The position numbers were made by a program, and so were the translations under genes. DNA of 64,000 bases from Candidatus Spongiisociaceae bacterium (lineage in GTDB: Bacteria > Actinomycetota > Acidimicrobiia > Spongiisociales > Spongiisociaceae): contig CBDCOH010000002.1 of the NCBI GenBank assembly GCA_965219685.1, positions 2,144,001-2,208,000 on the forward strand, written 5' to 3'. Position 1 is the stretch's first letter. Each line of letters opens with the position of its first letter. Below the pieces are notes generated by a model. It saw only the letters and a program-made list of their open reading frames with translations, did no database searches and was not told where the DNA came from. This document shows, one piece after another, positions 34,474-50,555 of this stretch.

Positions 34474-35922
34474 ATGACGACTCCATCAGTTCTTTCCAAG
34501 ACCGAACTGCCCCTTCGGCCCGACGTGGTGGCAGCCGGCGAGACGCTATCCGGAGATCCCTTGGAGGTACGGTCTCCCTGGGATGGCTCCCTCGTAGGAC
34601 TCGTGCCGACCGGCGGCCGATCGGAGACGGCGGACGCTATAGACGCGGCTCACCAGGCGACCCGTTCGCCCCTTCCGGCCTACCGCCGGGCCGAGATCCT
34701 TGACGGGGCAGCCGCCGGTATCGAAGCCAATCGGGACGCCTTCGCCCGCATACTGGCGCTTGAAATAGGAAAGCCTGTGAGCCAGGCGTTGGTCGAGGTC
34801 GACCGGTGTGTCCAGACCTTCAGGTTCTCGGCGGCCGAAGCCCGCACCCTGACCGGGACCGGCGTCGCCTTCGACGCCCATCCTGCGGGCGTGGGGCATC
34901 GCGGCTTCACCATCCGGGTTCCGATCGGGGTCATAGCCGCGATTACTCCGTTCAACTTCCCGCTGAACCTGGCGGCTCACAAGATAGGTCCAGCAATAGC
35001 GACCGGATGCGGCGTGGTGCTGAAGCCGTCACGGGATGCTCCGCTGGCGGCCACCGCGCTGGCCGGCCTTCTCTACGAGGCCGGCCTTCCCAGGGAAGCC
35101 CTGTCGGTCGTAGTGGGCTCCTCGTCGGAGATCGGTGACGTTCTCATCGCTGACCAGCGCGTGGGAATGATCACCTTCACCGGTTCGAGCGAGGTCGGTT
35201 GGCAACTGGCGGCCAGAGCTCCGCAGAAGCGCGTCAGTCTCGAACTCGGCAACTCCACGCCGCTCGTCGTGTGCGCGGACGCCGATCTGGCCGCGGCAGC
35301 CGGGTCGGTGGCTGCGAGCGGGTTCGCCTTCGCCGGACAGTCCTGCATTTCGGTGCAGCGGGTCATCGTCGAGGAGTCGGTCCACAGCCGCTTCGTCGAC
35401 GAACTGGTCGGAGCGAGCGCCGGCAAGATCCTCGGGGACCCGACAGACCCGGACACGTTCGTAGGGCCCCTCATCAACAGCAGCGCCCGCGAACGTGTCG
35501 CCGCATGGATCGAGGAAGCACAGGAAAGCGGCGCGACGCCCTTGGTCGACTCCACCAACGGTGGGCTCCACCTCGGTCCGACCGTGCTGGATGATGTCGA
35601 TACGGCGAGTCGGGTCTGGCAGGACGAGGTGTTCGGCCCGGTTGTCGGCATCCGGACCTTCTCTCGCTTCTCCGAGGCCATCGAGGCTGCCAACGCCACC
35701 GAGTACGGACTCCAGGCGGGCATCTTCACGACGGACATCCGCAAGGCGCTCGACGCGGCCGAGCAACTCGACTTCGGCGGTGTGACGATCAACGAGACGC
35801 CGACCTTCCGGGTCGACCAGATGCCCTACGGAGGAACGAAGATATCCGGCAACACCAGGGAAGGTCCCAGATACTCCGTAAGGGAGATGACCGAGGAACG
35901 AGTGGTGGTGATCGGAGGATGA
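34474..35922 (+). CDS. NAD(P)-dependent aldehyde dehydrogenase
   Basis: ITPFNFP, FTGS, LELG, GQSCIS catalytic Cys, EVFGP and PYGG motifs. Confidence 0.95.
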   Translation: MTTPSVLSKTELPLRPDVVAAGETLSGDPLEVRSPWDGSLVGLVPTGGRSETADAIDAAHQATRSPLPAYRRAEILDGAAAGIEANRDAFARILALEIGKPVSQALVEVDRCVQTFRFSAAEARTLTGTGVAFDAHPAGVGHRGFTIRVPIGVIAAITPFNFPLNLAAHKIGPAIATGCGVVLKPSRDAPLAATALAGLLYEAGLPREALSVVVGSSSEIGDVLIADQRVGMITFTGSSEVGWQLAARAPQKRVSLELGNSTPLVVCADADLAAAAGSVAASGFAFAGQSCISVQRVIVEESVHSRFVDELVGASAGKILGDPTDPDTFVGPLINSSARERVAAWIEEAQESGATPLVDSTNGGLHLGPTVLDDVDTASRVWQDEVFGPVVGIRTFSRFSEAIEAANATEYGLQAGIFTTDIRKALDAAEQLDFGGVTINETPTFRVDQMPYGGTKISGNTREGPRYSVREMTEERVVVIGG

Positions 35923-36007
35923 CCTGACGGTTTCCGCCGCGTCCCGCAGCTCCCAGCTTGGAGATACCCTTTATCCCCAGGTCACCACGACCGGCTCGGG
36001 TCCCAGG

Positions 36008-36841
36008 GTGCTCGACCGGACGTTCGCGATCCTGCGCCTGTTCACGCCCGAACTCCCCGATTGGACCGTTACCGAGGCCGCCGATGCGCTGGATCTGCCC
36101 GTTCCTACCGTTCACCGCCTGCTGGCCGCTCTGCAGCACCACGGATACGTGGCAAGGGACGAGGTGTCCAAGCGGTACCGGCTCGGCGTCTCCGCGTTCG
36201 AACTGGGCAGGAGGGCAACCGCGTCGACCGACCTGCGGTCGGCCAGTCTGAAGGTTCTGGAGTCGATGGCCTCCGCCAGCGGCGAGACGGTACTGCTGAC
36301 GGCGATCGGTCCCGACCGGCGTACTTCGGTGTGTCTGGAACGGGTGGAGAGCAGGAACCCCCTTCGACTGTCGGTCGTTCCGGGGCTACGGGTTCCGCTC
36401 CACGCAGGGGCTTCCCAAAAGGCTCTGCTCGCCTACATGAGCGATGTCGACTTGCATGCGTTCATAGATGGTGGACTGCCGTCCCTATGCGATGCGACGA
36501 TCACCAACCCGGCTGCACTGAAGAAGGAACTCGAGGCGATACGCAGCCGGGGTTGGGCGACCTCCTACCAGGAGACGAACCTGGGCCTCTGGGGCATCGC
36601 CATCACGTTGCTCGATGCCGGGTCGAAGGCCGTGGCGGCGGTAGGGCTGGCCGGACCCAGGGCGCGCCTGCCGAAGTCGCGGATACCCGAGGTTCTCCAT
36701 GTACTGGACGAGGGTGCCCGCGCCATAGCTGCGAGCAGGGCCTTGACGACTTCGACCCAGTTGACGACAGGCGAATCGCCCCCAAGTGAAGCTCGAAGAG
36801 ATCCAGACCCGGAATACGTTCAAAAGGAGAAGGGCCGTTGA
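36008..36841 (+). CDS. IclR-family transcriptional regulator
   Basis: N-terminal HTH (TVHRLL..YRLG), PLHAGASQKALLA and IRSRGWA motifs. Confidence 0.93.
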   Translation: MLDRTFAILRLFTPELPDWTVTEAADALDLPVPTVHRLLAALQHHGYVARDEVSKRYRLGVSAFELGRRATASTDLRSASLKVLESMASASGETVLLTAIGPDRRTSVCLERVESRNPLRLSVVPGLRVPLHAGASQKALLAYMSDVDLHAFIDGGLPSLCDATITNPAALKKELEAIRSRGWATSYQETNLGLWGIAITLLDAGSKAVAAVGLAGPRARLPKSRIPEVLHVLDEGARAIAASRALTTSTQLTTGESPPSEARRDPDPEYVQKEKGR

Positions 36842-37668
36842 CGACATCAAGCCAGACACTTCTAGATTCGTCGGTACCGACATCGGCGCTGAGCGGGAAG
36901 GTTGCGGTAGTCACGGGAGCCGCAAAGGGACTCGGTGCCGCCATCACGCTCGACCTGGCGCGCCAGGGCGCGGACATCGCTCTCGCGGCAAGGGAGGAGG
37001 ATGCCCTGCGCCATCATGCCGACCGCCTCGACGCCGAGTACGGTCATCGCTCGTCACTCGTCGTCAGAACAGATGTTCTGTCCGAAACCGACGTGGAGAA
37101 TCTGGTGAAGGAGACAGTGAGCCGGTTCGGGGGCATCGACATCCTGGTCAACACAGCGGGTGGTACGGGACCGATCGAAACGCCGGCTCAGAACGTCGAC
37201 GTGCAGGCCTTCAGAGACATTCTTGAGCTGAACGTGCTGGGAACCTTCGTCGTGTGCAAGTACGCCATCCCCAGCATGATCGAACGTCGCGACGGCCGGA
37301 TCGTGAACATATCGGGCACGAGCGGGCTGCGAGGCTACATCAACCGCGCCGGCTACTCGTCGTCGAAGTGGGCGGTCCGGGGTCTCACCCGGACCCTGGC
37401 ACTCGAACTCGGCCAGTACGGCATCACGGTCAACGCGGTGTGTCCCAACGTCACGCACGGCGATCGCATGACGCGGATCGTCAACACCAAGGCCTCCACT
37501 CTGGGGGTTACCCCAGAGGAGGTATATGCCGACTTCGCGTCACAGACCGCTCTGGGCCGGTTCATCGACAGCGGCGACATCGCGGCCGCGGTCTCGTTCC
37601 TGGTGTCGAACGGCGCCCGCAACATTACGGGACATGACATAGTGGTAGATGCCGGCTGGGACGTGTGA
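36838..37668 (+). CDS. Short-chain dehydrogenase/reductase
   Basis: TGAAKGLG and YSSSK motifs. Confidence 0.93.
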   Translation: MTTSSQTLLDSSVPTSALSGKVAVVTGAAKGLGAAITLDLARQGADIALAAREEDALRHHADRLDAEYGHRSSLVVRTDVLSETDVENLVKETVSRFGGIDILVNTAGGTGPIETPAQNVDVQAFRDILELNVLGTFVVCKYAIPSMIERRDGRIVNISGTSGLRGYINRAGYSSSKWAVRGLTRTLALELGQYGITVNAVCPNVTHGDRMTRIVNTKASTLGVTPEEVYADFASQTALGRFIDSGDIAAAVSFLVSNGARNITGHDIVVDAGWDV

Positions 37669-38569
37669 AGCGTTCGGGAGAGCCTTCACCCCGGGGGTCC
37701 GGGTGCGAGTAGCCGGTGTCCAGACCGGTCCGGTCGACGAGCGGCCAGCGGATGCGGTACGCACGGCATTCCGCCAACTCGGTGACACCACACCCGACCT
37801 GGTCGTCTTCCCCGAACTGTTCAGCCTGCCCTTCTGGTGCGTCGGTCACACCCGTCAGGACTTCTTCGCCTGGGCCGAGGACATCGAGGGGGAGACGCTG
37901 ACCACGGCCCGGGAGGAGGCCCGCGACCGTGGATGCCACGCGGTCGTGCCTTTCTTCGAACGGGGCGCCGTCGACGGGGTGTATTTCAACAGCGCAGCGG
38001 TGGTGGGACCGGACGGGGGCATCGTCCCTGGTGTACTGCCCACCGGTGAGGAAGTCCCTGTCTACAGGAAGAACGCCATCTCGTCCTACAACTGGAGCGG
38101 ATCGGTCAACGACGAGAAGTACTACTTCCGCCCCGGAGCCGGATACCCCGTCTTCACAACGAGCATCGGAAGGATCGGCGTGCTGATCTGCTACGACAGG
38201 TGGTTCGCCGAAGCATGGCGACTCCTTGGGCTCGCGGGAGCAGAAGTCATGTGCATCCCCAATGCCTCCAGCGGAACCGTATCAGGGTTGTTCATCCCCT
38301 CCATCAGGACCTGGTCCGCCCAGAACGTCGTCTTTTCGGTCGCCGTGAACCGCTCCGGCCAGGAGACAGTGAACGGTGTATCCACCGAGTTCTACGGTCT
38401 CAGTTGCGTGGCGTCCCCGCGCGGGAAGCTGCTGTCGGCCGCACCCGAGGGCGAGCCCGGTGTCACCTCTGCGACGATCGACCTCCGGGAAGTGGCCGCG
38501 GCCCGGATGGACCAGACCATGTATCGCGATCGGAGGCCCGAACTCTACGCTCCACTCGCCCGATCATGA
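37649..38569 (+). CDS. Carbon-nitrogen hydrolase (beta-ureidopropionase/N-carbamoylase-like)
   Basis: Catalytic triad FPELF, YRK, ICYDR is intact; EKYYFRPG..YPVF motif. Confidence 0.9.
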   Translation: MPAGTCEAFGRAFTPGVRVRVAGVQTGPVDERPADAVRTAFRQLGDTTPDLVVFPELFSLPFWCVGHTRQDFFAWAEDIEGETLTTAREEARDRGCHAVVPFFERGAVDGVYFNSAAVVGPDGGIVPGVLPTGEEVPVYRKNAISSYNWSGSVNDEKYYFRPGAGYPVFTTSIGRIGVLICYDRWFAEAWRLLGLAGAEVMCIPNASSGTVSGLFIPSIRTWSAQNVVFSVAVNRSGQETVNGVSTEFYGLSCVASPRGKLLSAAPEGEPGVTSATIDLREVAAARMDQTMYRDRRPELYAPLARS

Positions 38570-39975
38570 GCATTGCCACCAGCCTGCGGGACGGGCTTGA
38601 CCTGCTCGACCGGAAAGGTGGCCTGGTCCGGATCGGTCGGCCCGTGGATCCGGTCGGCGAGGTGACCGCTGTGCTGACCGCCCTCGAGGAGCAAGGCAAC
38701 TGGTCGGCCGTGCTCTTCGAGTCGGTGAAAGGGTACGAGGGCTGGCGTATCGCCGGGTCGGTCTTCTCAGACCGGTCGAATATCGCGGCGATGCTAGGAG
38801 CAGACCGGGAGCGCCTGGTCGCGGAGTTGAGCGACCGCTTCGCCCACCCGATGCCCACGTCCGACACCACGTCAGCGCCTGTCCACGAGGTGGTCGTGAC
38901 CGGTGACGACGCCTCCCTTGATGACCTCCCGCTCGTCTGGCATCACGAACGGGACGCCAACCGGTACATCTCCATGGGGCTCACCTTCGTGAAGGATCCC
39001 GAGACCGGGAAGCGGAACGCCGGGATCTACCGGTTCATGCAGCGCGACGCCACCACCTTGGTTCCTTCGCTCACCTCAATCTCCAACATCGCGGACATAT
39101 TCCGTCGCCAGGAGGGGCGCGGTGAGCCTCTCGACATCGCCATCGTGCCGTCGGCTTCCCCGGCACTCACGTTGGCGGCCAGCTACAGGGCGGCCCTGGG
39201 AACCGACGAGTGCACACTCGCCGGGGGGCTCCAGCAGGCTCCGGTGGAAATGGTCCCGGCCCGAACCGTCGACGTGGAAGTGCCGGCAGACGCGGAACTG
39301 GTCATCGAGGCCCGCATACAACCCGGCGAACGACACCCGGAGGCCCCGTTCGCGGACATGTCCGGCTCCTACAGCCGCGTCAAGCAGGGCCCCCTGGTCG
39401 TCGTCAGTGCCATCACCCGGCGGAAAGACCCCATCCTCCAACTGGCCTTCTCCGGTCATGCCGACGCCACGAACATGGCGGCGATCGGCCACGAAGTAGC
39501 CATCTGGCGCGCGGTGCAGGCATCCTCTTCCAACGTGGTAGCGGTTCACGTCCCGGCCAGCGGATACGGCTTCCATTGTTACCTGGCCATCCGGAAGGAA
39601 CCGACAGTGGAGGGGGGCGAGCGAGGCGAGCAACGGAACGTGATGCTGGCCGCCTTGGGGGCGGTGCCGCAGCTCAAACTGGTAGTCGCCTTCGACCACG
39701 ACGTTGACATCTTCAACGAGCACCAGGTACTCGGGGCGCTGGCGCGACGCTTCCAAGCCATCGATCCGCGCACAGGACGCAGTCGCATAACGGTCATCGG
39801 AGACGCCAAGGGGGCCACCTACGATCCGAGCAGTTTTCATCGCGAGTACCCGAACTCGAAGCTGATGATCGACGCCACGATTCCCACCGATCTCGATCCT
39901 TCGGTCCGGGCCGCGTTCGAGGAAGCGAAACCCGGATGGCGCGACTCCATCGATCTGACCGAGTATTTCGGTTAG
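38566..39975 (+). CDS. UbiD-family prFMN-dependent (de)carboxylase
   Basis: HHERDANRYI, RNAGIYR, VPADAELVIE, EAPFADMSGSY, DHDVDIF and KLMIDAT motifs. Confidence 0.9.
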   Translation: MSIATSLRDGLDLLDRKGGLVRIGRPVDPVGEVTAVLTALEEQGNWSAVLFESVKGYEGWRIAGSVFSDRSNIAAMLGADRERLVAELSDRFAHPMPTSDTTSAPVHEVVVTGDDASLDDLPLVWHHERDANRYISMGLTFVKDPETGKRNAGIYRFMQRDATTLVPSLTSISNIADIFRRQEGRGEPLDIAIVPSASPALTLAASYRAALGTDECTLAGGLQQAPVEMVPARTVDVEVPADAELVIEARIQPGERHPEAPFADMSGSYSRVKQGPLVVVSAITRRKDPILQLAFSGHADATNMAAIGHEVAIWRAVQASSSNVVAVHVPASGYGFHCYLAIRKEPTVEGGERGEQRNVMLAALGAVPQLKLVVAFDHDVDIFNEHQVLGALARRFQAIDPRTGRSRITVIGDAKGATYDPSSFHREYPNSKLMIDATIPTDLDPSVRAAFEEAKPGWRDSIDLTEYFG

Positions 39976-40182: not shown

Positions 40183-40713
40183 GTGCCGCCCTTGCGGGGA
40201 GACCTGATCCGCCTTCGCCTCGTACGCAGTGGCGACATCGATGATCTGCTCGATCTCCTCAACGACCTCGGCACGCGCGGTGCTCTGGGCCACTTTCTCA
40301 AGTCTGAGACCCACGTCCGGCACCGGTTCGAGCAGGACGGCTACTGGTCCGACAAGTCTGGAATGCTGCTCATGATCGATGCCGCCGCCGACATAGCAGG
40401 GTGGATATCGTTCACTCCCGTCGTCTTCTACTTCCACGGCTACGAAATCTCCTACCAGGTGTTCGGCGAGCGGCATTCCGGCAAGGGCTATGCAACCGAG
40501 GCTTTAGGTTTGCTCACCGATTATCTGTTCTCGACCAAGCTGATGCACCGGCTCCAACTCAGCATCAGGCCGGACAATCTCGCGTCGCGGCGGGTGGCGG
40601 AGAAGTGCGGTTATACGCAGGAGGGCGTGATGCGTTCGATCGCGTTCAGCCACGGCCGGTTTCACGACATGGAGCTATGGTCGATCACCCGCCAGATGCA
40701 CGAGGCGATGTGA
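40183..40713 (+). CDS. GNAT acetyltransferase, RimJ/RimL family
   Basis: GKGYATEAL and NLASRRVAEKCGY..EG motifs. Confidence 0.9.
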   Translation: MPPLRGDLIRLRLVRSGDIDDLLDLLNDLGTRGALGHFLKSETHVRHRFEQDGYWSDKSGMLLMIDAAADIAGWISFTPVVFYFHGYEISYQVFGERHSGKGYATEALGLLTDYLFSTKLMHRLQLSIRPDNLASRRVAEKCGYTQEGVMRSIAFSHGRFHDMELWSITRQMHEAM

Positions 40714-40965: not shown

Positions 40966-43374
40966 GTGACCACCACAAGCACGCATCGCCACGTCGGAAA
41001 GCCGTATCTCGGCTTGACCAACCGGGAGCTTGCCGCCGGCAAGGGCCTGTTCGTCTCCGACATCGTACTGCCCGGCATGGCTCACCTGGCCATCCTCCGG
41101 AGTCCCCACGCGGCCGCTCGCATCGTCTCGATCGACACCTCGGCGGCCGAAGGACTCGACGGTGTCGTCTACGTGATGACCGGAGCCGAGGCGAAGACCG
41201 GGATGAGCCCCATACCCGAAGCCTGGAACACCAAGGAGATCGGCGCCAAGGGGGTCGACTGGTACGCCCTCGCGCCGGACCGGGTCCGCTACGTGGGCGA
41301 AGCGGTGGCTGCGGTCGTGGCGGAGTCCAAGAACACTGCTTTCGAAGCGGTCGGGCTGATCGATGTCACCTACGAAGTGCTACCTGCCGTGACCGACCCG
41401 AGAGCGGCCCTGGAACCCGATTCGACCCTGGTCGAACCCGACTGGGGAGACAACCTGCTGATAACCCGGGACTGGCGTACCGGCGACATGGAGGGCGCCT
41501 TCGAGCGGGCCGAGCGGATCATCGAGGGTGAGGTCCGCTCCGAGCGGATCACCGGCGTCTCCCTGGAACCACGGGGCTCGGTCGCCCAGTACGACGTCTA
41601 CCAGGACAAGCTGACGCTCTGGGAGTCGACCCAGAATCCCCACCCGCTCAGAACCTTCCTGGCGGAGACGCTCGGCATCCCCGAGCGGACTGTCCACGTC
41701 ATCCAACCGAACGTCGGGGGGGCCTTCGGGCTGAAGCAACCGCCATTCCAGGAGCAACCCCTCATTGCATACCTGGCGAAGAAGCTGGGCCGACCGATCA
41801 AATGGATCGAGGGACGGGACGAGAACTTCGCCACCACCGGTCACTCCCGCGACGTCAGATTCGACTACCGGGCCGCCTTCGACCGCGACGGCATCGTCAG
41901 CGGTCTCGACATCAGGGTCATCGCCGATGTCGGAGCCCCCACGGCTCTCCTGGGTTGGGGCCAGTCGTTCGTTACCGCCTACTGCCTGCCGACCGTGTAC
42001 CGAGTCCCGAACAACCGCATCCGGTTGTCGGTCGTGGTCACCAACAAGACACCCTGGAATGCCTACCGGGGTTTCGGGAAGGACTCCGCAACCTTCCTGA
42101 TGGAGCGGATCATCGACCGGGTGGCTCGCGAGACCGGTCTCGATCGTGCCACGGTCCGGTACAAGAACTTCATCCAACCCGACGAGTTCCCCTACTCGCA
42201 GCCGTCCGGAGCCATGCTGGACAGCGGCGACTACCCGGGATCCCTGGACAAGGTTCTGGAGATGATCGGCTGGGACGAGTTTCCCGAGGTGCAGCGCCGG
42301 GCCCGGGAGGAGGGCCGCTACATCGGCATCGGCCTCAGCCAGGAGTTGACCCCCGAGGGTTGCGCCATGCCGGGCGCGGTCCTGATCTCGGCGTACGACG
42401 GCGCGACGGTACGGGTCGCCCCGTCCGGTGACGTCACGGTCCTAACCGGCGTCACCTCACCCGGCTGCGGTAACGAGACGGCGATGGCCCAGATCGCCGC
42501 GGAATTCCTCGGCTGCGACATGGAACGCATCAAGGTGCTCCAAGGCGACACCGAGTCCTGTCCTTACGGCCTCGGCAACTTCAGTTCGAGAGCCACGATG
42601 TACGGCGGCTCGGCCGTGCAGGCCGCCGCAACAGAACTGCGGGAGAAGATGTTCCGCATCGCCGGCAAGATGCTGGAGGCGGCGCCGGAGGATCTCGACG
42701 CTGCCCATGGCAGGATCTTCGTGCTGGGAGCGGAGAAACGTAGCGTCCGCTTCGACGATGTCGCCAACCAGGTCTACCGGCACACGTTCGGGGAGTACGC
42801 GGATGAGGAGGAGCCAGGACTCGAGTCGACCCGCTACTTCCGGATGGGGAACGTCTATCACCAGCCCGAGAAGCAGGGACGGTTCAGCAACTACCCGGCC
42901 TGGCCGAGCGGTACCGCGGCATGCGTCGTCGAGGTCGATCCGGACACAGGGGGCGTCAAGGTGCTGCGCTTCTGCCTCGTCGACGACGCCGGCACCGTCA
43001 TCAACCCGTTGCTCGTGACCGCCAACCTGCACGGATCCGTGGCCCAGGGCATCGGTGGGACGATGTTCGAGCAATTGGCGTACGACTCGAACGGCCAGTT
43101 GCTGACCGCAACGCTGATGGACTACACGATCCCGACGGCCGTCGAACTCCCGCGCTTCGAGATCGAACACCAGCAGACACCCTCGCCCTTCACACCGTTG
43201 GGCATGAAGGGAGTCGGGGAATCCGGCGTCGGTGTGTGCCTGAACGCTCTGTGCAGCGCCATCGAGGACTCCCTGCCCGAACTGGACCTGGAGATCAACG
43301 AGTTGATCCTGTCTCCCAGCCGGGTATGGCATGCCATCAACGAAGCGCGGCAACGGCAGGGGGTGACCCTTTGA
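40966..43374 (+). CDS. Xanthine dehydrogenase-family large subunit #2
   Basis: STQNPH, GGAFGLK, AYRGFG and KGVGE motifs. Confidence 0.93.
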   Translation: MTTTSTHRHVGKPYLGLTNRELAAGKGLFVSDIVLPGMAHLAILRSPHAAARIVSIDTSAAEGLDGVVYVMTGAEAKTGMSPIPEAWNTKEIGAKGVDWYALAPDRVRYVGEAVAAVVAESKNTAFEAVGLIDVTYEVLPAVTDPRAALEPDSTLVEPDWGDNLLITRDWRTGDMEGAFERAERIIEGEVRSERITGVSLEPRGSVAQYDVYQDKLTLWESTQNPHPLRTFLAETLGIPERTVHVIQPNVGGAFGLKQPPFQEQPLIAYLAKKLGRPIKWIEGRDENFATTGHSRDVRFDYRAAFDRDGIVSGLDIRVIADVGAPTALLGWGQSFVTAYCLPTVYRVPNNRIRLSVVVTNKTPWNAYRGFGKDSATFLMERIIDRVARETGLDRATVRYKNFIQPDEFPYSQPSGAMLDSGDYPGSLDKVLEMIGWDEFPEVQRRAREEGRYIGIGLSQELTPEGCAMPGAVLISAYDGATVRVAPSGDVTVLTGVTSPGCGNETAMAQIAAEFLGCDMERIKVLQGDTESCPYGLGNFSSRATMYGGSAVQAAATELREKMFRIAGKMLEAAPEDLDAAHGRIFVLGAEKRSVRFDDVANQVYRHTFGEYADEEEPGLESTRYFRMGNVYHQPEKQGRFSNYPAWPSGTAACVVEVDPDTGGVKVLRFCLVDDAGTVINPLLVTANLHGSVAQGIGGTMFEQLAYDSNGQLLTATLMDYTIPTAVELPRFEIEHQQTPSPFTPLGMKGVGESGVGVCLNALCSAIEDSLPELDLEINELILSPSRVWHAINEARQRQGVTL

Positions 43375-44216
43375 TAACACGTGAGCTGGAACTCCTCCGG
43401 CCGACCACCACTGCGGAGGCGGTGGAGTTGCTCGCCGAGCGAGGAGATGACATCACGGTCCTCGCCGGAGGGATGAGCCTGCTTCCGATGATGAACCTGG
43501 GCATCGTCCAGCCTGATGTCGTCATGTCCCTCAACCACGTGACGGATCTCGCCGGGGTGACCTACGGGGACAGACTCCGGATCGGCGCCATGGTCAGCCA
43601 CAAGGAGGTCGAGACCAACCCGCTTGTCTCCACCCATGCACCGATGCTCGCCGAAGCGGCGGCGAAGATCGGGGACGTGCAGGTGAGGAACAGGGGCACC
43701 ATCGCCGGTAGCATCTGCCATGCCGATCCCGCCGGCGACTACTCCCCCGTGATCGTGGTGGCGGGGGCCGAGATGGAGTTGGCCAGCCTGGGCGGGACCC
43801 GACGGCTGCCCGCGCACGAGTTCCTTATCGATCTGATGTTCACGGCCAGGGAACCAGACGAACTGGTGACCGCAGTCCTCGTTCCGAGCCAGCCAGACGG
43901 GGCGGGTTCGGCATACGTGCGCTTCGCCCGTGTCGAGGGCAGCTTCGCCATCGTCAACGCCGCGGCGCTGATCGAGCCCGGATTCGCCTCGACCAGAGTG
44001 GCCATCGGAGGGGTAGGGCCCATCCCGGTGGTGGTCGACGCGTCGGACGCCTTCGCCGACGGCCCCGGACCCGCCGCATTCGAGGAGTTGAACGCGAGGG
44101 CCTACGACGCTGCCGTCTATGCATCGTCCGACATCCACTCGGATGCCGAGTACCGGCGCCATATGGCAGGCGTCTTTGCACGGCGCGCCGTGCAGCAGGC
44201 AATCGCGACCATGTGA
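43371..44216 (+). CDS. Molybdoenzyme FAD medium subunit #2
   Basis: AGGMSL and QVRNRGTIAGSICHADP motifs. TTG start overlaps the stop of the large subunit. Confidence 0.92.
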   Translation: MITRELELLRPTTTAEAVELLAERGDDITVLAGGMSLLPMMNLGIVQPDVVMSLNHVTDLAGVTYGDRLRIGAMVSHKEVETNPLVSTHAPMLAEAAAKIGDVQVRNRGTIAGSICHADPAGDYSPVIVVAGAEMELASLGGTRRLPAHEFLIDLMFTAREPDELVTAVLVPSQPDGAGSAYVRFARVEGSFAIVNAAALIEPGFASTRVAIGGVGPIPVVVDASDAFADGPGPAAFEELNARAYDAAVYASSDIHSDAEYRRHMAGVFARRAVQQAIATM

Positions 44217-44232: not shown

Positions 44233-44721
44233 ATGAAGTACCAGGTCAACCTGACGGTCAACGGTAAGGGCAGAACCGTCGAAGTCGACACGCGGACGAT
44301 CCTCGTCGACATGCTCCGTGACGAACTCCGGCTTACAGGCGCCCATGTCGGCTGCGCGACCGGCAACTGTGGGGCATGCACCGTGCTGCTCAACGGCGAG
44401 ACCGTCAAGTCCTGCTGCGTTCTGGCCGCCGATGCCGAGGGCCAGGACGTTCGGACGATCGAGTCATTGAGCACCGGCCCGGACGACCTGCATCCCATCC
44501 AGGAAGCCTTCATCGACAACCAGGGATTGCAGTGCGGCTTCTGCACCCCGGGGATGATCCTGTCGACCCTGGCCCTGCTGGAGGAGAATCCCGATCCGAC
44601 CGAGGCGGAGATCCGCCACGGGATAGCCGGCAACCTCTGCCGCTGCACCGGGTACCACTTCATCGTGGACTCGATCGAAGACGCCGCCGCCCGCCTGCGT
44701 ACAGGTTCAGAGGCTTCGTGA
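44233..44721 (+). CDS. Molybdoenzyme 2Fe-2S small subunit #2
   Basis: GCATGNCGAC, QCGFCTPG and NLCRCTGY motifs. Confidence 0.95.
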   Translation: MKYQVNLTVNGKGRTVEVDTRTILVDMLRDELRLTGAHVGCATGNCGACTVLLNGETVKSCCVLAADAEGQDVRTIESLSTGPDDLHPIQEAFIDNQGLQCGFCTPGMILSTLALLEENPDPTEAEIRHGIAGNLCRCTGYHFIVDSIEDAAARLRTGSEAS

Positions 44722-44780: not shown

Positions 44781-46037
44781 GTGAACGTGACAAAGTACTG
44801 GCATCCATTTGCAGACATGCGGGCGATAACCCGAGGCCAGGAACTCGTTATCGACCGAGCCGACGGCTACTACGTGTTCGACGCGGAGGGCCGCCGCTAC
44901 CTCGACGCCACCGCGAGCCTCTGGTATTGCAACGTCGGCCACGGACGTACCGAGATCGCGGAAGCAGCGTTCGAGCAGATGCAGAGACTCGAGGCCTACT
45001 CGACCTTCGGGGACTTCACCAACCCGCCCGTCATGGAATTGACGGACCGGCTCGCCGAGATAGCCCCGGTCCCTGACAGCGTGTCGTTTCTGACCAGCGG
45101 GGGCTCGGATTCCATCGACACCGCCATTAAGCTCGCCCGCCTCTATCACAAGGTCAAGGGGGAACCACAGCGCACCTACGTGTTGAGCAGGTTCCGCGCC
45201 TACCACGGGATGCACACCGGCGGCACCAGCATGGCCGGAATCGCGCCCAACCTCGATGGATACGGAGCGCTCCTGTCCGACACGCGTGTGGTCGGCTGGG
45301 ACTCGCACGACGAATTGATCGAAGCCATGGAGGACCTCGGTCCGGAGAACATCGCCGCGTTCGTCTGCGAACCGGTGATCGGGGCGGGCGGCGTGCTGGC
45401 CCCACCTCCCGGTTACCTGGAGAAGGTGCGCGGCATCTGCCGCGACTCCGGAATCCTCTTCATCTCGGATGAGGTGATCACCGGTTTCGGGCGCACCGGG
45501 ATGTGGTTCGCTAGCGAGCGGTGGAACCTGGCCCCGGACCTCATGACCTGCGCCAAGGGAATAACCTCCGGCTACCTCCCGCTCGGTGCGGTGATAGTCG
45601 CTCCGTGGATCGCGGAACCGTGGTTCGAGGGGGGCGCCGGGATGTGGCGCCACGGCTACACATACTCAGGGCACGCCACCGTCGCCGCGGCGGCGAACGC
45701 CAACCTCGACATCATCGAACGGGAGGGCCTGGTGCGGTCGGCCGCGGTTCTGGAGGCCAAGCTGGCGAAGGGGCTCAGCCCTCTGGCGGACCACCACTTG
45801 GTCAGCGAGGTGAGAGCCGGGGTGGGTGCCATGGCCGCCGTGCAGCTGTCCCTGGACGCGGTGGACGAAGACCCGGGGCTACCCGACAGGCTGATGGGCG
45901 CGCTCCGTGAGCACGGCATCCTCACGCGAATCCTGTTCGGCCACGCCGTGCAGGTGTCGCCCCCCTTCACTCTCGACGACAGCGGCGTGGGAGAACTAGC
46001 CGACGGGATCCGCGGCGCTCTGGACGCTGTGGCTTGA
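44781..46037 (+). CDS. Class III PLP aminotransferase (omega-amino acid/beta-alanine:pyruvate type)
   Basis: DEVITGFGRTG, PDLMTCAKGITSGY and HGYTYSGH motifs. Confidence 0.93.
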   Translation: MNVTKYWHPFADMRAITRGQELVIDRADGYYVFDAEGRRYLDATASLWYCNVGHGRTEIAEAAFEQMQRLEAYSTFGDFTNPPVMELTDRLAEIAPVPDSVSFLTSGGSDSIDTAIKLARLYHKVKGEPQRTYVLSRFRAYHGMHTGGTSMAGIAPNLDGYGALLSDTRVVGWDSHDELIEAMEDLGPENIAAFVCEPVIGAGGVLAPPPGYLEKVRGICRDSGILFISDEVITGFGRTGMWFASERWNLAPDLMTCAKGITSGYLPLGAVIVAPWIAEPWFEGGAGMWRHGYTYSGHATVAAAANANLDIIEREGLVRSAAVLEAKLAKGLSPLADHHLVSEVRAGVGAMAAVQLSLDAVDEDPGLPDRLMGALREHGILTRILFGHAVQVSPPFTLDDSGVGELADGIRGALDAVA

Positions 46038-46152: not shown

Positions 46153-47559
46153 ATGAGCAAGTTCGATCTGGTAATCCACGGCGGGACACTCGTATTCACC
46201 GACGAGGCAATACCGGGTGACATAGGCGTCAGGGACGGGAAGATAGCGGCCATCTCCGCCCCTGGCATGCTCGTCAACGGCACCCGGACCATCGACGCGA
46301 CCGACCTACATGTGTTCCCGGGCGCGATAGACCCGCACGTCCATCTGCAGACATTCCAAAGCCCCTTCGACGTCAACGTGAAGACCGAAACCAGGAACGC
46401 CGCCATCGGCGGATGCACGACCATGGTTCCCACGCTCCTCAACCGTGAGGACGCCTCGGTCTCGTTCCTCGACTATTACCCGTGGGCTCTGGAAGCCGTG
46501 CAGCGTGATTCGGTGATCGATGCCGGATTCAGCGCGGTGATCGGCACCGACCAGCAGATCGAGGAACTACCGGCGATGGCGTACGACTGCGGCATAACCT
46601 CGTACAAGTTCTACATGGCCTACACCCAGGACGAGGCCTCCGTGTTCGGGATCCTGGCGGTCGACGACGCCCAGTTCCTCGCCGGCCTCCGCCAGGTAGC
46701 CGCCATCGGCAAGCCCGCTATCGCCATGGTCCACGCCGAGAACATGTCCATCATCCACAACCTGAAGGCCAAGTACATCGCCGCAGGCCGGGACGACCTC
46801 AAGGCATGGACCGACGCGCGGCCCGACATCGCCGAGGAGGAAGCCACCCGCCGGGCGATCTGGTACACGAAGGAGACCAACTCGCAGCTCTACATCGTCC
46901 ACATGACCATCGGCCGCGGGGTCGACTGGGTCCGCCAGGCCAAGGCGGACGGCGTGGACGTGATAGCCGAGACCTGCCCTCACTACCTGGTGCTCACCAA
47001 GTACGACAACGACAAGGTCGGCAGCCTCGCCAAGGTGAACCCTCCGCTGCGCGACGCCGAGAGCCAGGAGCTGCTCTGGGAGGGTCTCCGTGACGGCACC
47101 GTGACCTGCGTCGGTTCGGACCACTCCACGGTGGTGGCCAAGCCCGACAAGGTAAAGGAGAGCATCTGGGATGCGGTTCCGGGATTCCCCGGGATGGGCA
47201 TGCTGCTGCCGATCATGCTGAGCGAGGGTTACCACAAGGGCCGTATATCGCTGCCGGGTGTCTCCCGGATCCTGGGGCTCCAGAACGCCGAGGTATGGGG
47301 GCTGTATCCGAAGAAGGGTGTGCTGCGGGTCGGTTCGGACGCCGACTTCGCCATCGTCGACCTGGACCGGGAACGGGTGGTGACGCCCGAGTACATGCAG
47401 TCGGCGGCCGACTGGGGCCTGTACGACGGCTGGAACGTCAAGGGGTGGCCGACCCAGACCATCGTGAGAGGAACCGTGGTCATGGACTCCGGCGAGATCG
47501 TCGGCGACCCGTCCTTCGGCCAGTACATTCCGAGGTATCCGTACGACAAGGCGAGCTAG
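46153..47559 (+). CDS. Cyclic amidohydrolase (dihydropyrimidinase/hydantoinase/allantoinase family)
   Basis: DPHVH, SYKFYMAY, HAEN, VH, ETCPHYL, KVNPPLR and SDH motifs. Confidence 0.92.
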   Translation: MSKFDLVIHGGTLVFTDEAIPGDIGVRDGKIAAISAPGMLVNGTRTIDATDLHVFPGAIDPHVHLQTFQSPFDVNVKTETRNAAIGGCTTMVPTLLNREDASVSFLDYYPWALEAVQRDSVIDAGFSAVIGTDQQIEELPAMAYDCGITSYKFYMAYTQDEASVFGILAVDDAQFLAGLRQVAAIGKPAIAMVHAENMSIIHNLKAKYIAAGRDDLKAWTDARPDIAEEEATRRAIWYTKETNSQLYIVHMTIGRGVDWVRQAKADGVDVIAETCPHYLVLTKYDNDKVGSLAKVNPPLRDAESQELLWEGLRDGTVTCVGSDHSTVVAKPDKVKESIWDAVPGFPGMGMLLPIMLSEGYHKGRISLPGVSRILGLQNAEVWGLYPKKGVLRVGSDADFAIVDLDRERVVTPEYMQSAADWGLYDGWNVKGWPTQTIVRGTVVMDSGEIVGDPSFGQYIPRYPYDKAS

Positions 47560-47622
47560 CGGCCGGGGGAGCCGGCTGAGACCGCTACCACCGAACCGGA
47601 AGTCCCGACTGAAGATCGAGCG

Positions 47623-48534
47623 ATGAACGCACCAGCCAATCCCGGGAATCGTTCCTGGCCGGTACACCGCTGGTTCGCCGACGTCCCCGCTGTGCAGGAG
47701 CGGTTGGCCGGTTGCGACTACCTGGCCGATCGAGGGTTGGCCACCGCGATATTCCTCGCTACGTCGCTGAACCTGCCCCTGCTGCTCGAGGGGGAGGTGG
47801 GGGTGGGCAAGACCGAGGTGGCCAAGGCGGTCGCCCAGGCGCTCGGCCGCCGGGTCGTGCGGCTCCAGTGTTACGAAGGCATCGACTCGACCCAGGCGCT
47901 GTACGAGTGGGACTACCCCCGCCAACTTCTCTACCTTCGAGCGGTCGGGGACGCGAGAACTGACAAGGAGGGCGTGGTCGAAGATCTCTACGGGCCCCGC
48001 TTCCTGAAAGAGCGTCCCCTGCTCGAAGCCATCCGGGCCGGTTCGGGAGTGGTGCTCTTGATCGACGAGATCGACCGGGCCGACGACGAGTTCGAGGCTT
48101 TCCTGCTCGAGGTCCTGGCCGACTTCCAGGTCTCCATCCCGGAGATAGGGCCGGTAACAGCTGTCGATCCGCCGTTCGTCGTCCTGACCTCCAACCGGAC
48201 CCGTGAGTTGCATGACGCGCTGAAGCGACGCTGCCTGTACCACTGGATCGACTACCCCGGCCCGGATCGAGAGGTGGCCATCGTGCGGGCCCGGGTCCCG
48301 GAGGTCCCCGAGGACTTGGCCCGACGGATCGTCGAGGCGGTCCACCGATTCCGTCGGCTCGACCTGATCAAGCGGCCTGGAGTCGCCGAGACCATCAACT
48401 GGGCACTCACGCTGGACCTGCTCGATGTCGATGATCTCGAGACCGAGATTGTGACTCCGACCCTCGGTGCCCTGCTGAAGGAACGAGAGGACATCGACCG
48501 CGTCACCCCTCAACTCGACGCAGTGCTGGCTTGA
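47623..48534 (+). CDS. coxD: MoxR-type AAA+ ATPase, CoxD-like
   Basis: GEVGVGKT, RLQCYEG, YEWDY, IDEIDRAD and HDALKRRC motifs. Confidence 0.88.
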   Translation: MNAPANPGNRSWPVHRWFADVPAVQERLAGCDYLADRGLATAIFLATSLNLPLLLEGEVGVGKTEVAKAVAQALGRRVVRLQCYEGIDSTQALYEWDYPRQLLYLRAVGDARTDKEGVVEDLYGPRFLKERPLLEAIRAGSGVVLLIDEIDRADDEFEAFLLEVLADFQVSIPEIGPVTAVDPPFVVLTSNRTRELHDALKRRCLYHWIDYPGPDREVAIVRARVPEVPEDLARRIVEAVHRFRRLDLIKRPGVAETINWALTLDLLDVDDLETEIVTPTLGALLKEREDIDRVTPQLDAVLA

Positions 48535-49751
48535 TCGGCCCTGGTGACGATCCGGCGAGCGTACTGGTGTCGTTCGGCAATGCCCTGCGTGAGCAGGGCG
48601 TCAAGGTGAGCCCCGCCGAGATCGTCACGCTCGGCCATGCATTCTCGCTCCTCGGAACCGACGATCTCGAAGATGTCTACTGGTCGGGGAGAACCTGTCT
48701 GGTGTCGGCGTACGTCGACATCCCGGCATATGACGCGGCGTTCGCTTCGTTCTTCCTCGGCTCGGACCCGGACATGTCGCTCGAAGTCGGCGAGGATCCG
48801 GAAGACGAGGTGACCGATGCGGGAGCCGCCGGGGCGGGGGACGAGCGGGACTCGTTTCTCGACAGCCCCTCGGTCGAGGACGGTGACGGCGGATCCGAGG
48901 AGCCGGAGGCTGACCCCGACCCGGGAGCCGTGGCCTCGCTCTTCGAGATACTCCGGCACCGGTCCTTCTCCGAGTGGACCGACGAAGAGAAGACCAACCT
49001 GGCCACGCTCGTGGGCCGGATCGAGATTCGGGTACCGCGCCGATGCACGCGGCGACTCCGGCCGGCGACGGTGGGCCACAGCCTGGATCTGCGCAGGACC
49101 GTCCGCCGAGCGCTGCAAACGGAAGGAGAGGTCCTCCGGAGATCATGGCGGCGGCGCGTACACACACCACGGCGTCTGCTCCTCCTGGTGGATGTCTCGG
49201 GGTCGATGTCGACCCAGTCCAGAGCAATGCTGCACCTGGGCTACGGGCTCGCGACGAGCACGCTCGACACCGAGGTGTTCTGCTTCGGGACCAGGCTCAC
49301 CCGCACCACGGACCTGCTCAAGGGACGTGACCCCGACCTCGCGGTGCAGCGCGCATCGGCCGGGGTCGTCGACTGGGCCGGGGGAACCAGGATCGGCGAG
49401 TCGATGGCAAGCCTGCTCCGGGATCCGGTCGCGCTGCGCCATGTGCGGGGAGCGCTCGTTCTGGTCGCTTCGGACGGACTCGAAACGGGCGACCCCGAGT
49501 TGATGGCCGACCAGGTTGCCCGCCTGTCCCGGCTGGCCTACAGGGTCGTGTGGATGAGCCCGCTCAAGTCCGATCCGTCCTACCGGCCGCTGACCCGAGG
49601 CATGAGGTTGGCGTTCCCCCATCTCGACCATCTGGTGGGTGCGGACACGCTCGGCGATCTGGAAGCAGTGGCGAAACTCCTTCCCAGGCTCGTCTCCGGC
49701 ACCCGCTCTCTGCCGCGGCAACCAAGAGCCGGCTACCGGGCGAGACCGTAG
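48531..49751 (+). CDS. coxE: VWA-domain protein, CoxE-like
   Basis: DVSGSM MIDAS, FGTRLT, DWAGGTRIG and SDG motifs. Confidence 0.87.
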   Translation: MIGPGDDPASVLVSFGNALREQGVKVSPAEIVTLGHAFSLLGTDDLEDVYWSGRTCLVSAYVDIPAYDAAFASFFLGSDPDMSLEVGEDPEDEVTDAGAAGAGDERDSFLDSPSVEDGDGGSEEPEADPDPGAVASLFEILRHRSFSEWTDEEKTNLATLVGRIEIRVPRRCTRRLRPATVGHSLDLRRTVRRALQTEGEVLRRSWRRRVHTPRRLLLLVDVSGSMSTQSRAMLHLGYGLATSTLDTEVFCFGTRLTRTTDLLKGRDPDLAVQRASAGVVDWAGGTRIGESMASLLRDPVALRHVRGALVLVASDGLETGDPELMADQVARLSRLAYRVVWMSPLKSDPSYRPLTRGMRLAFPHLDHLVGADTLGDLEAVAKLLPRLVSGTRSLPRQPRAGYRARP

Positions 49752-49889
49752 GTCACCTCCACCAGCCGGCGGTGGTCGTGGACCCTCCCTTACATCTCCC
49801 GGATAGGCTCCGGTACATCGTCCCTTACCGCGGCCCACCGGGGGAGGGGACGGTGACACGGCGCCGGCAGCGACCACAGGAGTCCACGG

Positions 49890-50555
49890 ATGGCAACCAT
49901 CAGGAACGACCGCAAGAGAGTCGAGGAGTTCATCATCCCCCGGGGAACCGGCAAGGCGTTCCACCTGGCGGCAGGGCAGATCCTGCGGATCACCGCCCAC
50001 GAGGGCAAACAGGTCGCGGACGTCAAGTTCATCAACGCCCACGACCACAGGGAGCAATTCTGCGCGTGGTGGTCCTCGTGCCTCAACTCCGAACGCCCCG
50101 ATGGCCTGATAACCGGTGGAACCAAGAGGATCACCGAACTGTTCTCCAAACCCCCCTGGGAGCGGGTGATGCTCCGCGTCATCGACGACAAGGTCGGAGA
50201 CCACCTCTTCAACGGCGCCTGCTCACCCCGTATCCGGGAGTTGATGCCCGAATTCGACTATCTGGGTAGCGAGACCTGCGTGGACCTCTTCCAGGAGGTC
50301 CTCGCTCCCCATGGCATCGGGCTCGAAGACCTGGAGGCGTCCGGTACGTTCAACGTTTTCATGCCGGTCCGCTTCAGGGACGACGAAGCCGGAACGTGGG
50401 AGTTCCTTCCGCCGTCCTGTGAGAAGGGTGACTTCATCGAGTTCCAAGCGGAGATGGACATCCTGGTGGCGGCGACCTCCTGCCCGCAGGTCGCCATCAT
50501 CAACGACTACAACCCCAAGGCCATGATGTACCAGATCTTCGAACGGCAGGGCTAA
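49890..50555 (+). CDS. DUF1989 / urea carboxylase-associated family protein
   Basis: GQILRI..EGKQVAD, H...GAC, C, FNVFM, and GDFIEFQAEMDILVAATSCP motifs. Confidence 0.88.
   Translation: MATIRNDRKRVEEFIIPRGTGKAFHLAAGQILRITAHEGKQVADVKFINAHDHREQFCAWWSSCLNSERPDGLITGGTKRITELFSKPPWERVMLRVIDDKVGDHLFNGACSPRIRELMPEFDYLGSETCVDLFQEVLAPHGIGLEDLEASGTFNVFMPVRFRDDEAGTWEFLPPSCEKGDFIEFQAEMDILVAATSCPQVAIINDYNPKAMMYQIFERQG

Follow-up and report, generated by a model that had tools for sequence, protein, structure and literature searches.

A gene cluster pairing a UbiD decarboxylase with a molybdenum hydroxylase in a Candidatus Spongiisociaceae bacterium, most likely for catabolism of a nitrogen heterocycle

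The 64,000-nucleotide stretch of DNA analysed here (the window; positions 2,144,001 to 2,208,000 of contig CBDCOH010000002.1) comes from a Candidatus Spongiisociaceae genome of 4.4 Mb, 65% G+C and 96.7% completeness. Its nearest public relatives are metagenome-assembled genomes of sponge-associated Acidimicrobiia. Positions 34474-50555 carry 14 genes that encode, among others, a UbiD-family decarboxylase, a nitrilase-type carbon-nitrogen (C-N) hydrolase, a hydantoinase-like amidohydrolase and a three-subunit molybdenum (Mo) hydroxylase. We conclude that the cluster most likely serves the catabolism of an N-heterocycle by Mo hydroxylase and UbiD, a process known in kind, through an undescribed combination of enzymes. 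More tentatively, we favour a regulated two-operon catabolic unit whose substrate would be an N-heteroaromatic with a uracil-type (cyclic ureide) ring, most likely a fused one of the pteridine/lumazine, purine or alloxazine type.

Organization of the gene cluster

All 14 open reading frames (ORFs) lie on the plus strand, and Pfam assigns them to the families that a first-pass annotation of the window had listed as a co-oriented run:

34474..35922 (+), NAD(P)-dependent aldehyde dehydrogenase (ALDH; Pfam Aldedh, E 5e-142)
36008..36841 (+), IclR-family regulator (Pfam HTH_IclR and IclR_C)
36838..37668 (+), short-chain dehydrogenase/reductase (SDR; Pfam adh_short and adh_short_C2)
37649..38569 (+), nitrilase-superfamily C-N hydrolase (Pfam CN_hydrolase, E 7e-42)
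38566..39975 (+), UbiD-family decarboxylase, predicted to depend on prenylated flavin mononucleotide (prFMN; three UbiD Pfam domains, PF20695, PF01977 and PF20696)
39955..39975 (+), terminator-like hairpin at the UbiD stop (motif scan; weak indication)
39976-40003, promoter-like site 3' of the hairpin (motif scan; weak indication)
40183..40713 (+), GNAT acetyltransferase (Pfam Acetyltransf_3)
40966..43374 (+), Mo hydroxylase large (molybdopterin) subunit, MoL (Pfam Ald_Xan_dh_C, MoCoBD_1 and MoCoBD_2)
43371..44216 (+), Mo hydroxylase FAD subunit, MoM (Pfam FAD_binding_5 and CO_deh_flav_C)
44233..44721 (+), Mo hydroxylase 2x[2Fe-2S] subunit, MoS (Pfam Fer2 and Fer2_2)
44781..46037 (+), class-III (omega) aminotransferase (Pfam Aminotran_3, E 1e-82)
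46153..47559 (+), binuclear-metal cyclic amidohydrolase of the hydantoinase/dihydropyrimidinase/allantoinase group (nearest solved structures and motifs)
47623..48534 (+), CoxD/MadB-like AAA ATPase, presumed Mo-enzyme maturation factor (Pfam AAA_5)
48531..49751 (+), CoxE-like VWA protein (Pfam VWA_CoxE, E 4e-50)
49890..50555 (+), DUF1989 protein, pathway membership unproven (Pfam DUF1989, E 4e-28)

Inspection of start codons places the true start of UbiD at 38566, where an ATGA overlaps the nitrilase stop and couples the two genes translationally. Stop and start codons also overlap in the IclR/SDR (4 bases), Mo large/FAD subunit and CoxD/CoxE pairs. The nitrilase, UbiD, amidohydrolase, SDR, ALDH, aminotransferase, 2Fe-2S subunit and ATPase all retain their catalytic motifs. 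Among NCBIfam models, only the general one for the UbiD subfamily is passed; no cluster protein scores above an equivalog cut-off.

Conservation of the cluster in related genomes

The neighbourhood was compared across 38 loci with a UbiD ortholog of at least 55% identity, a check that the first-pass annotation had proposed; a metagenome scan had added 36 loci to those examined. The 38 span sponge Acidimicrobiia, another Actinomycetota family, and marine and soil metagenomes, and many are cut by contig ends. The genes are indeed co-conserved, in rearranged orders. The most constant feature is the nitrilase gene, which lies directly upstream of UbiD on the same strand in 30 of the 31 loci with at least 950 bp of upstream flank. 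The families occur around the UbiD ortholog as follows:

Nitrilase-type hydrolase, 32/38 loci
IclR, 31/38
SDR, 25/38
MoS, 20/38
MoM, 19/38
MoL, 18/38
ALDH, 17/38 (63-97% identity)
DUF6282, 15/38
Amidohydrolase, 10/38
TRZ/ATZ deaminase, 10/38
CoxE, 10/38
CoxD, 9/38
Aminotransferase, 8/38
UbiX, 8/38
Rieske, 8/38
NMT1 binding protein, 5/38
GNAT, 3/38 (all close relatives)
NCS1, 1/38
DUF1989, 0/38 (many flanks end before its position)

IclR, SDR, the three Mo subunits, ALDH, amidohydrolase and aminotransferase thus recur, rearranged, around orthologous UbiD genes in other lineages, and we therefore regard the grouping as more than chance. The IclR gene adjoins UbiD in line with the operon in this genus and is divergently oriented in others. 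The L-M-S set of Mo subunits stands beside the UbiD ortholog in 18-20 of the 38 loci, in several arrangements. The aminotransferase adjoins the amidohydrolase wherever the flank shows both; the pair directly follows UbiD in L029, as does the amidohydrolase in L055 and L046. The GNAT gene is outside the conserved core.

All six species-level relatives within the genus (UbiD 84-88% identical) retain the order ALDH-IclR-SDR-nitrilase-UbiD. The other half (Mo enzyme-aminotransferase-amidohydrolase-CoxDE) directly adjoins it in two relatives; the gap is 8 kb in a third, and in three more this half falls outside the 10-kb flank. The four genomes with a gap between the halves all possess a 96%-identical amidohydrolase. 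In the three complete chromosomes it lies on the same strand, 13-27 kb downstream, and in the fourth genome on a separate contig. The hairpin at the UbiD stop coincides with the synteny break in the relatives L002 and L004-L006. Hairpin and insertions together suggest two transcription units that are nevertheless kept together; in total, promoter and terminator scans returned no more sites than in shuffled sequence. The insert between the halves at L004:11426-21402 carries an IS110 transposase, a xanthine/uracil-family permease, a phosphopantetheinyl transferase and a modular polyketide synthase (PKS) gene.

UbiD orthologs are found in six of the seven other species of the genus, in none of the 17 genomes of other genera of the family and in none of 16 from elsewhere in the order. 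Among 400 genomes of the phylum, the search recovered them (62-63% identity) only in four genomes of another family, which cluster the same genes in a different order and orientation. Within 20 kb, L024 from this distant family encodes IclR, SDR, nitrilase, UbiD, the three Mo subunits, aminotransferase, amidohydrolase, CoxDE, TRZ/ATZ deaminase, DUF6282, UbiX and an NMT1-type binding protein. This patchy distribution fits an accessory catabolic trait.

The UbiD decarboxylase

UbiD passes the general subfamily model TIGR00148 (261.3 bits against a cut-off of 244.85). The closest solved structure is HmfF (6h6v, E 6.5e-61), which outranks the phenolic-acid, indole-3-carboxylate, protocatechuate and ubiquinone decarboxylases. 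The motif EAPFAD occupies residues 259-264, and Arg156 does not vary across the clade alignment; presumably these are the catalytic Arg and the acid pair of the E-x-P-F-x-D/E motif, to which we assign their customary roles. The clade is monophyletic with 100/100 tree support and a long stem, and stands apart from the other paralogs of this genome and from the Cupriavidus and Natrinema genes. Scores fall far below the cut-offs of PRK10922 (126 against 788), mena_SCO4490 (168 against 496) and VdcC (244 against 650). Judged from these scores and the nearest structure, the cluster UbiD is not a quinone-biosynthesis or phenolic-acid decarboxylase, an assignment that would have undermined the first-pass proposal.

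According to PMC7976604, a histidine of HmfF is key to furan specificity. By manual count on the alignment, the H296/H297 position of HmfF is occupied by Ala in the cluster UbiD. At least 210 homologs were found at E<=1e-40, and none of the best 120 bears the name of a cultured organism. We also considered orthology to the xanthine-8-carboxylate decarboxylase (XCDC) of Cupriavidus, which is ruled out by 32.7% identity to the syntenic gene and by the separate 100/100 clade.

Four of the five UbiD genes of the genome lie within 57 kb (G000:C2:2125940-2143256 upstream of the window, and window 38566-39975). One paralog (2141643-2143256, minus strand) and the DUF6282 gene at the start of the window are arranged divergently; this paralog groups with a second UbiD near the cluster in metagenome locus L041. 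The paralog adjoining DUF6282 is nearer to the Cupriavidus gene (37% identity) than is the cluster UbiD.

The nitrilase-type hydrolase

The nitrilase possesses the Glu-Lys-Cys triad of its superfamily (FPELF, YRK, ICYD). Its closest solved relatives are N-carbamoylputrescine amidase and a beta-ureidopropionase-like enzyme of Pyrococcus; the score against the aguB model is 159, below the cut-off of 410, and ESM Atlas matches fall in generic "carbon-nitrogen hydrolase" clusters only. The first-pass annotation had pointed to YRKNAIS where the family usually has YRK.HIP. The motif lies at residues 139-145, where canonical relatives have YRKSHIP or YRKIHL. The substitution is real and is a signature of the clade: the YRKxH[IL]P segment of N-carbamoyl amidases is replaced by YRK[NH]A[IV]S[SA], together with a 4-residue insertion, in all 32 orthologs read.

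The Mo hydroxylase and its maturation proteins

The Mo enzyme has the subunit composition of the xanthine oxidase family, with a molybdenum cofactor subunit, a FAD subunit and a subunit with two 2Fe-2S domains that retains its cysteine motifs. The nearest solved structure of the large subunit is quinoline 2-oxidoreductase QorL (1t3q, E 3e-140). The active-site loop of aerobic CO dehydrogenase is AYRCSFR, with a Cu-binding Cys. Here the loop is AYRGFGK, which lacks that cysteine, and the enzyme is therefore not a CO dehydrogenase; its CO_dehy_Mo_lg score is 516 against a cut-off of 991. The CoxD-like ATPase carries a Walker A motif and scores 281 bits against the NCBIfam MadB model (cut-off 475), and the CoxE-like gene is paired with a CoxD-like gene in related loci.

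At least seven large-subunit genes of the xanthine oxidase family occur within about 70 kb (window 20934-23657 (-), 40966-43374 (+) and 54562-56904 (+), and G000:C2:2132553-2141413). Two of them carry 130-190 additional N-terminal residues ahead of the hammerhead domain, and one shows the form-II loop AYRGAGR. Sponge symbionts are reported to have an expanded set of CoxL-like genes, for which the oxidation of organic substrates was suggested as the reason (PMC8941161).

The amidohydrolase and remaining cluster proteins

The amidohydrolase is the most conserved protein of the set (67-97% identity). Its nearest solved relatives are L-hydantoinase (1gkr) and D-hydantoinases, followed by allantoinases and dihydropyrimidinases. 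A binuclear metal site is indicated by DPHVH, the lysine of KFYMAY and the aspartate of GSDH in all orthologs read, and the remaining histidine ligands are seen in the translation (VHAEN, IVHMT). The Asn of the IPNG substrate loop is absent (a gap, VPGFPG) in all eight full-length orthologs. Scores stay under the cut-offs of TIGR02033 (308.6 against 393.25), PRK13404 (326 against 647) and the allantoinase model TIGR03178 (295.6 against 357.85).

The aminotransferase is closest to solved amine, omega and putrescine transaminases. ALDH contains Glu257 and Cys291 and matches lactaldehyde dehydrogenase best (455 bits, cut-off 650); methylmalonate/malonate-semialdehyde dehydrogenase is not among its 25 best NCBIfam matches. 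The SDR carries TGxxxGxG and YxxxK motifs.

Partner genes outside the cluster

Three further genes in the window belong to families that accompany the UbiD ortholog elsewhere:

1..800 (+), DUF6282 metal-hydrolase, gene begins 82 bases before the window (Pfam DUF6282)
8618..9268 (+), UbiX-type flavin prenyltransferase, outside the cluster (Pfam Flavoprotein, E 1.5e-42)
32861..34075 (+), Rieske/VanA_C-type monooxygenase 5' of ALDH, possibly associated (Pfam Rieske and VanA_C)

The UbiX in the window shares 48% identity with its counterpart inside the L037 cluster, a protein that scores above the UbiX cut-offs of NCBIfam. UbiX is part of the cluster in L028, L037 and L052, and in L028 and L052 it sits between UbiD and MoL, in the slot held here by GNAT. 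L037 also encodes an NCS1 permease and a Rieske/VanA_C oxygenase related to the one upstream of ALDH, whose orthologs (83-87% identity) are found upstream in L001 and L002.

The DUF6282 protein is 72% identical to one that adjoins IclR in L039. An AlphaFold2 model (predicted local distance difference test score 86.7) has the barrel of the amidohydrolase superfamily. A fold search gave phosphotriesterase-like lactonases, PTER and LigI as best matches, all generic lactonases or hydrolases, and a sequence search of the PDB returned no match. In the soil-type loci, DUF6282 stands beside IclR, a TRZ/ATZ-family aminohydrolase precedes SDR-nitrilase-UbiD, and an ABC transporter with an NMT1/THI5-type binding protein is present. 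Nucleobase-type transporters of related loci comprise NCS1, Xan_ur_permease and NMT1- or Bmp-type binding proteins.

On the haloarchaeal plasmid pNVE500 of Natrinema versiforme (L067, 191745-221007), UbiX, UbiD and DUF6282 are grouped with an AMP-dependent ligase, a PaaI thioesterase and a three-subunit Mo enzyme. DUF6282 thus travels with UbiD/Mo clusters in a second, coenzyme A (CoA)-dependent context. The L040 cluster too holds an AMP-binding enzyme.

Proposed pathway

The nearest solved relatives fit the roles expected in N-heteroaromatic catabolism, being N-carbamoyl amidases, hydantoinases, a decarboxylase of heteroaromatic acids and a hydroxylase of bicyclic N-heteroaromatics. From the families, intact motifs, nitrilase-UbiD coupling and co-conservation, we infer both a substrate type and an order of steps; the order follows the lumichrome pathway (PMC12746152) and the enzyme types follow the lumazine pathway (PMC12391406). 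First, the hydantoinase-like amidohydrolase and/or DUF6282 would open the ureide ring to a ureido-carboxylate. The nitrilase-type enzyme would then take off the carbamoyl group and, optionally and in relatives, the TRZ/ATZ deaminase could turn an amino group into an oxo group. Removal of the exposed ring carboxylate would fall to the HmfF-like UbiD, with the UbiX at 8.6 kb as its source of prFMN. The Qor-like Mo hydroxylase, matured by the CoxD/CoxE-like proteins, would add an oxo group beside a ring nitrogen, either before ring opening or after decarboxylation. Finally, aminotransferase, ALDH and SDR could handle the amine, aldehyde and alcohol fragments that arise when the remaining ring is opened.

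A more specific version seems to us somewhat unlikely: that nitrilase and UbiD form a new decarbamoylation-decarboxylation couple in a widespread oxygenase-free route, built from hydrolases, prFMN and Mo, that mineralises fused-pyrimidine metabolites. If true, sponge symbionts and soil and marine Actinomycetota would degrade pterins/lumazines, purines or flavin remnants as far as small amines and acids. A new substrate class, amino- or oxo-diazine or imidazole carboxylates, would be attached to the UbiD clade, and the hydantoinase-like enzyme would hydrolyse fused uracil rings that are aromatic.

Several observations weigh against the favoured pathway as a whole. With no equivalog cut-off reached, the specificity of every cluster enzyme is a guess, and the assignment of roles to aminotransferase, ALDH, SDR, GNAT and DUF1989 is loose. 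Two separate functions would be compatible with the terminator-like site that follows UbiD and with the insertions between the halves. L046 is the exception to the nitrilase-UbiD arrangement; there UbiD directly follows MoS and a nitrilase gene is lacking. The amidohydrolase and aminotransferase are absent from the soil-type loci within flanks of +/-10 kb. The 38 loci are not independent events, since several are near-duplicates or close copies. Orthology to the published lumichrome and lumazine enzymes is shown for none of the proteins: UbiD belongs to a different clade from the syntenic XCDC-type gene of C. campinensis (32.7% identity), the cluster has no Amidohydro_2 isomerase, and DUF6282 is undetectable in the Cupriavidus cluster.

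Until 2025, no routes were known by which pterins, flavins and many N-heterocycles are broken down, and every route solved since has relied on unexpected enzymes. In the present cluster, a distinct prFMN-UbiD clade is combined with a nitrilase clade whose substrate loop is altered, a Qor-like Mo hydroxylase and a hydantoinase-like enzyme of unusual type. Identification of the substrate would give functions to several large unannotated protein clades, DUF6282 included, and would partly explain the CoxL-like expansion in sponge symbionts. It would also extend the short list of natural UbiD substrates, which is relevant to biocatalytic (de)carboxylation.

Comparison with known pathways

The closest parallel in enzyme types is lumazine degradation by Cupriavidus sp. 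LA-1 (Doi, Maeda, Takaya 2025, PMC12391406). That report describes a three-subunit Mo dehydrogenase, an Amidohydro_2 isomerase, a UbiD/UbiX xanthine-8-carboxylate decarboxylase and a pterin deaminase, encoded beside purine/pyrimidine transporters, with Mo hydroxylation and the isomerase acting before the prFMN decarboxylase. Cluster I of Cupriavidus needs no oxygenase, and like the present system with its partners it unites a Mo hydroxylase, UbiD/UbiX, an amidohydrolase-superfamily enzyme, a deaminase, transporters and a regulator. We made the comparison with the syntenic copy on the C. campinensis chromid (Amidohydro_2 twice, UbiD, Xan_ur_permease, LysR, M, S, L, UbiX and CobW). The isomerase of cluster I is an Amidohydro_2 protein, in contrast to DUF6282 and the hydantoinase-like enzyme here; cluster I lacks nitrilase, SDR, aminotransferase, ALDH and CoxDE; and it has a LysR regulator and a CobW GTPase, whereas the present cluster has IclR and no CobW.

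The order of steps resembles lumichrome degradation in Nocardioides simplex (Sinha et al. 2025, PMC12746152). In the breakdown reconstituted there, LumH opens the fused uracil ring, LumI removes the urea group and LumM hydrolyses the amidine; the thiamine pyrophosphate (TPP)-dependent LumK/L then decarboxylates the heterocyclic acid and the xanthine oxidase-type LumJ hydroxylates the ring. The operon includes alcohol and aldehyde dehydrogenases and a methyl-oxidising oxygenase, and a Rieske dioxygenase and a catechol dioxygenase follow; no such dioxygenase genes were seen in the present cluster. The chemistry is thus alike (open, remove urea, deaminate, decarboxylate, hydroxylate), whereas the enzymes differ, with a TPP decarboxylase, a single 140 kDa xanthine oxidase chain and a P450 methyl oxidase on the lumichrome side. 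The comparison covered the order of reactions and the sizes of the proteins (80 and 24 kDa for LumH and LumI). Because the C. campinensis UbiD is 32.7% identical and nothing there resembles DUF6282, we consider the present cluster analogous to both 2025 systems and orthologous to neither.

UbiD is also paired with a three-subunit Mo enzyme in the hydroxymethylfurfural (HMF)/furoate pathway (HmfFG with the Mo furoyl-CoA dehydrogenase HmfABC). Unlike that pathway, the present cluster has no CoA ligase, and the furan-specificity His is replaced by Ala. The company of C-N hydrolases and an aminotransferase points to a nitrogen heterocycle rather than a furan as substrate.

In clostridial purine fermentation, known from literature of the 1950s-60s, xanthine is converted to 4-ureido-5-imidazolecarboxylate, 4-amino-5-imidazolecarboxylate and 4-aminoimidazole. 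This route opens a ureide, removes the carbamoyl group and decarboxylates, the same steps as proposed here, preceded by a Mo hydroxylase; such a sequence would suit the way the genes adjoin one another in the present cluster. It has no role for an aminotransferase, ALDH or SDR. Literature searches did not find the genes of the clostridial route. Nor did they find UbiD together with a dihydropyrimidinase, hydantoinase or nitrilase-type enzyme, the supplements of the 2025 papers being outside their scope.

Alternative explanations

Reductive pyrimidine catabolism uses PydA/PreTA, dihydropyrimidinase, beta-ureidopropionase, beta-alanine transaminase and a semialdehyde dehydrogenase. The first-pass annotation had proposed a variant of it, in which a pyrimidine carboxylate of the orotate or iso-orotate type is hydroxylated by the Mo enzyme, decarboxylated by UbiD and passed to a dihydropyrimidine-like lower pathway; there the amidohydrolase opens the ring, the nitrilase acts as beta-ureidopropionase, the aminotransferase yields a semialdehyde and ALDH oxidises it. 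We regard this route as unlikely. All four lower-pathway families are present and intact, as an amidohydrolase of the dihydropyrimidinase/hydantoinase group, a relative of N-carbamoyl amidases, a class-III aminotransferase and an ALDH. The aminotransferase stands beside the amidohydrolase wherever the flank shows it and has beta-alanine-pyruvate and omega-amino-acid transaminases among its solved relatives, and related loci supply nucleobase-type transporters and a deaminase. The first-pass annotation had noted no dihydropyrimidine dehydrogenase, and none was found genome-wide (genome 96.7% complete): a single PF01180 match exceeds the cut-off, far from the window, which we take to be PyrD. 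A replacement would therefore be needed.

This same absence, however, leaves the lower-pathway reading with no candidate identified for reducing the 5,6 double bond, and (methyl)malonate-semialdehyde dehydrogenase is not among the 25 best matches of ALDH. UbiD and the Mo enzyme have no place in the reductive pathway, the family cut-offs are unpassed, and substrate-side motifs are altered in both hydrolases: the amidohydrolase lacks the IPNG Asn of D-hydantoinases and the nitrilase lacks the canonical His-x-Pro after the catalytic Lys. Among the parts of the proposal that stand is the co-conservation of the genes; the invariant pair among them is nitrilase-UbiD, not an amidohydrolase-nitrilase-transaminase trio. 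The aminotransferase is missing from L030, L048 and the soil-type loci. Oxidation, decarboxylation and then ring opening is a possible order and one option among others, not the best supported, since the lumichrome pathway decarboxylates after ring opening and places the Mo step later still (PMC12746152); it also lacks the reduction step and leaves the nitrilase-UbiD tie unexplained.

It is quite unlikely, in our estimate, that the nitrilase acts first and, working as an amidase or nitrilase, attacks a heteroaromatic carboxamide (for example of the aminoimidazole-, pyrazine- or pyridine-carboxamide types), with UbiD decarboxylation, Mo hydroxylation and ring opening by the hydantoinase-like enzyme to follow. 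Such an order would suit the tight nitrilase-UbiD coupling, the departure of the nitrilase motif from N-carbamoyl amidases, the closeness of the amidohydrolase to hydantoinases and the persistence of the core where the amidohydrolase is not nearby. Against it, the nitrilase has N-carbamoyl amidases as its nearest relatives throughout, among solved structures and NCBIfam models alike, and not aryl amidases or nitrilases; the literature searches gave no precedent.

The cluster could also be two unrelated neighbouring modules, ALDH-IclR-SDR-nitrilase-UbiD and GNAT-Mo enzyme-aminotransferase-amidohydrolase-CoxDE-DUF1989, which we hold to be very unlikely. The hairpin and promoter-like site between them are in line with such a split, as are the IS110 element, permease, amidohydrolases and PKS genes that follow UbiD in L002 and L004-L006 and the lack of amidohydrolase and aminotransferase within 10 kb in soil-type loci. 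The recurrence of the three Mo subunits beside UbiD in varied arrangements argues otherwise, as do UbiX between UbiD and MoL in L028 and L052, the aminotransferase-amidohydrolase pair or amidohydrolase directly after UbiD in L029, L055 and L046, and the retention of the second module by all four gap genomes.

Equally improbable to a high degree is an actinobacterial pterin/lumazine pathway in the strict sense, with the Mo enzyme as lumazine dehydrogenase, DUF6282 as dihydroxylumazine isomerase and UbiD as xanthine-8-carboxylate decarboxylase. The parts overlap those of Cupriavidus cluster I (deaminase, Mo L-S-M, UbiX, UbiD, an amidohydrolase-superfamily protein, nucleobase transporters and regulator), and PMC12391406 reports divergent clusters in Actinomycetota. 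Yet the cluster UbiD is of another clade than the syntenic Cupriavidus gene, to which the paralog beside DUF6282 is closer, and the published pathway contains nothing that corresponds to the nitrilase, SDR, hydantoinase-like enzyme or aminotransferase. DUF6282 was rejected as the lumazine isomerase: the Cupriavidus isomerase subunits are Amidohydro_2 proteins, and a hidden Markov model of 120 DUF6282 proteins found no match in L066. Routes for the thiamine pyrimidine, pyridoxine, ectoine, pyrrole-2-carboxylate, thymine-to-uracil conversion and creatinine were also considered; judged by their chemistry, none would account better for the nitrilase-UbiD-Mo core.

Genomic setting

The cluster lies within an island of about 90 kb. 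Besides UbiX and four of the five UbiD genes of the genome, this island contains at least seven genes for Mo large subunits, as well as several ABC transporters of the Bmp and NMT1 types. In the window, genes for Bmp (PnrA-like) ABC transporters form four sets (905-5991, 14622-18885, 24909-32622 and 60969-63999). An NMT1/THI5-type binding protein is encoded at 12382-13677, beside a 506-residue Amidohydro_1 gene at 9329-10846.

Rieske/VanA_C monooxygenases are encoded by four genes in the window (7352-8404 (+), 19796-21052 (-), 30366-31358 (-) and 32861-34075 (+)), and tblastn with one related protein gave 13 matches genome-wide. These enzymes may be demethylases or methyl oxidases for the same compound class.

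Convergent on the cluster end is a gene for a 721-residue protein (50650-52815 (-)) with Schlafen AlbA_2, HATPase_c_4 and MarR-type helix-turn-helix domains, for which no NCBIfam match was found. The assembly has a second contig, C1, of 30458 bases and 59% G+C, compared with 65% for the chromosome, which may be a plasmid or a contaminant.

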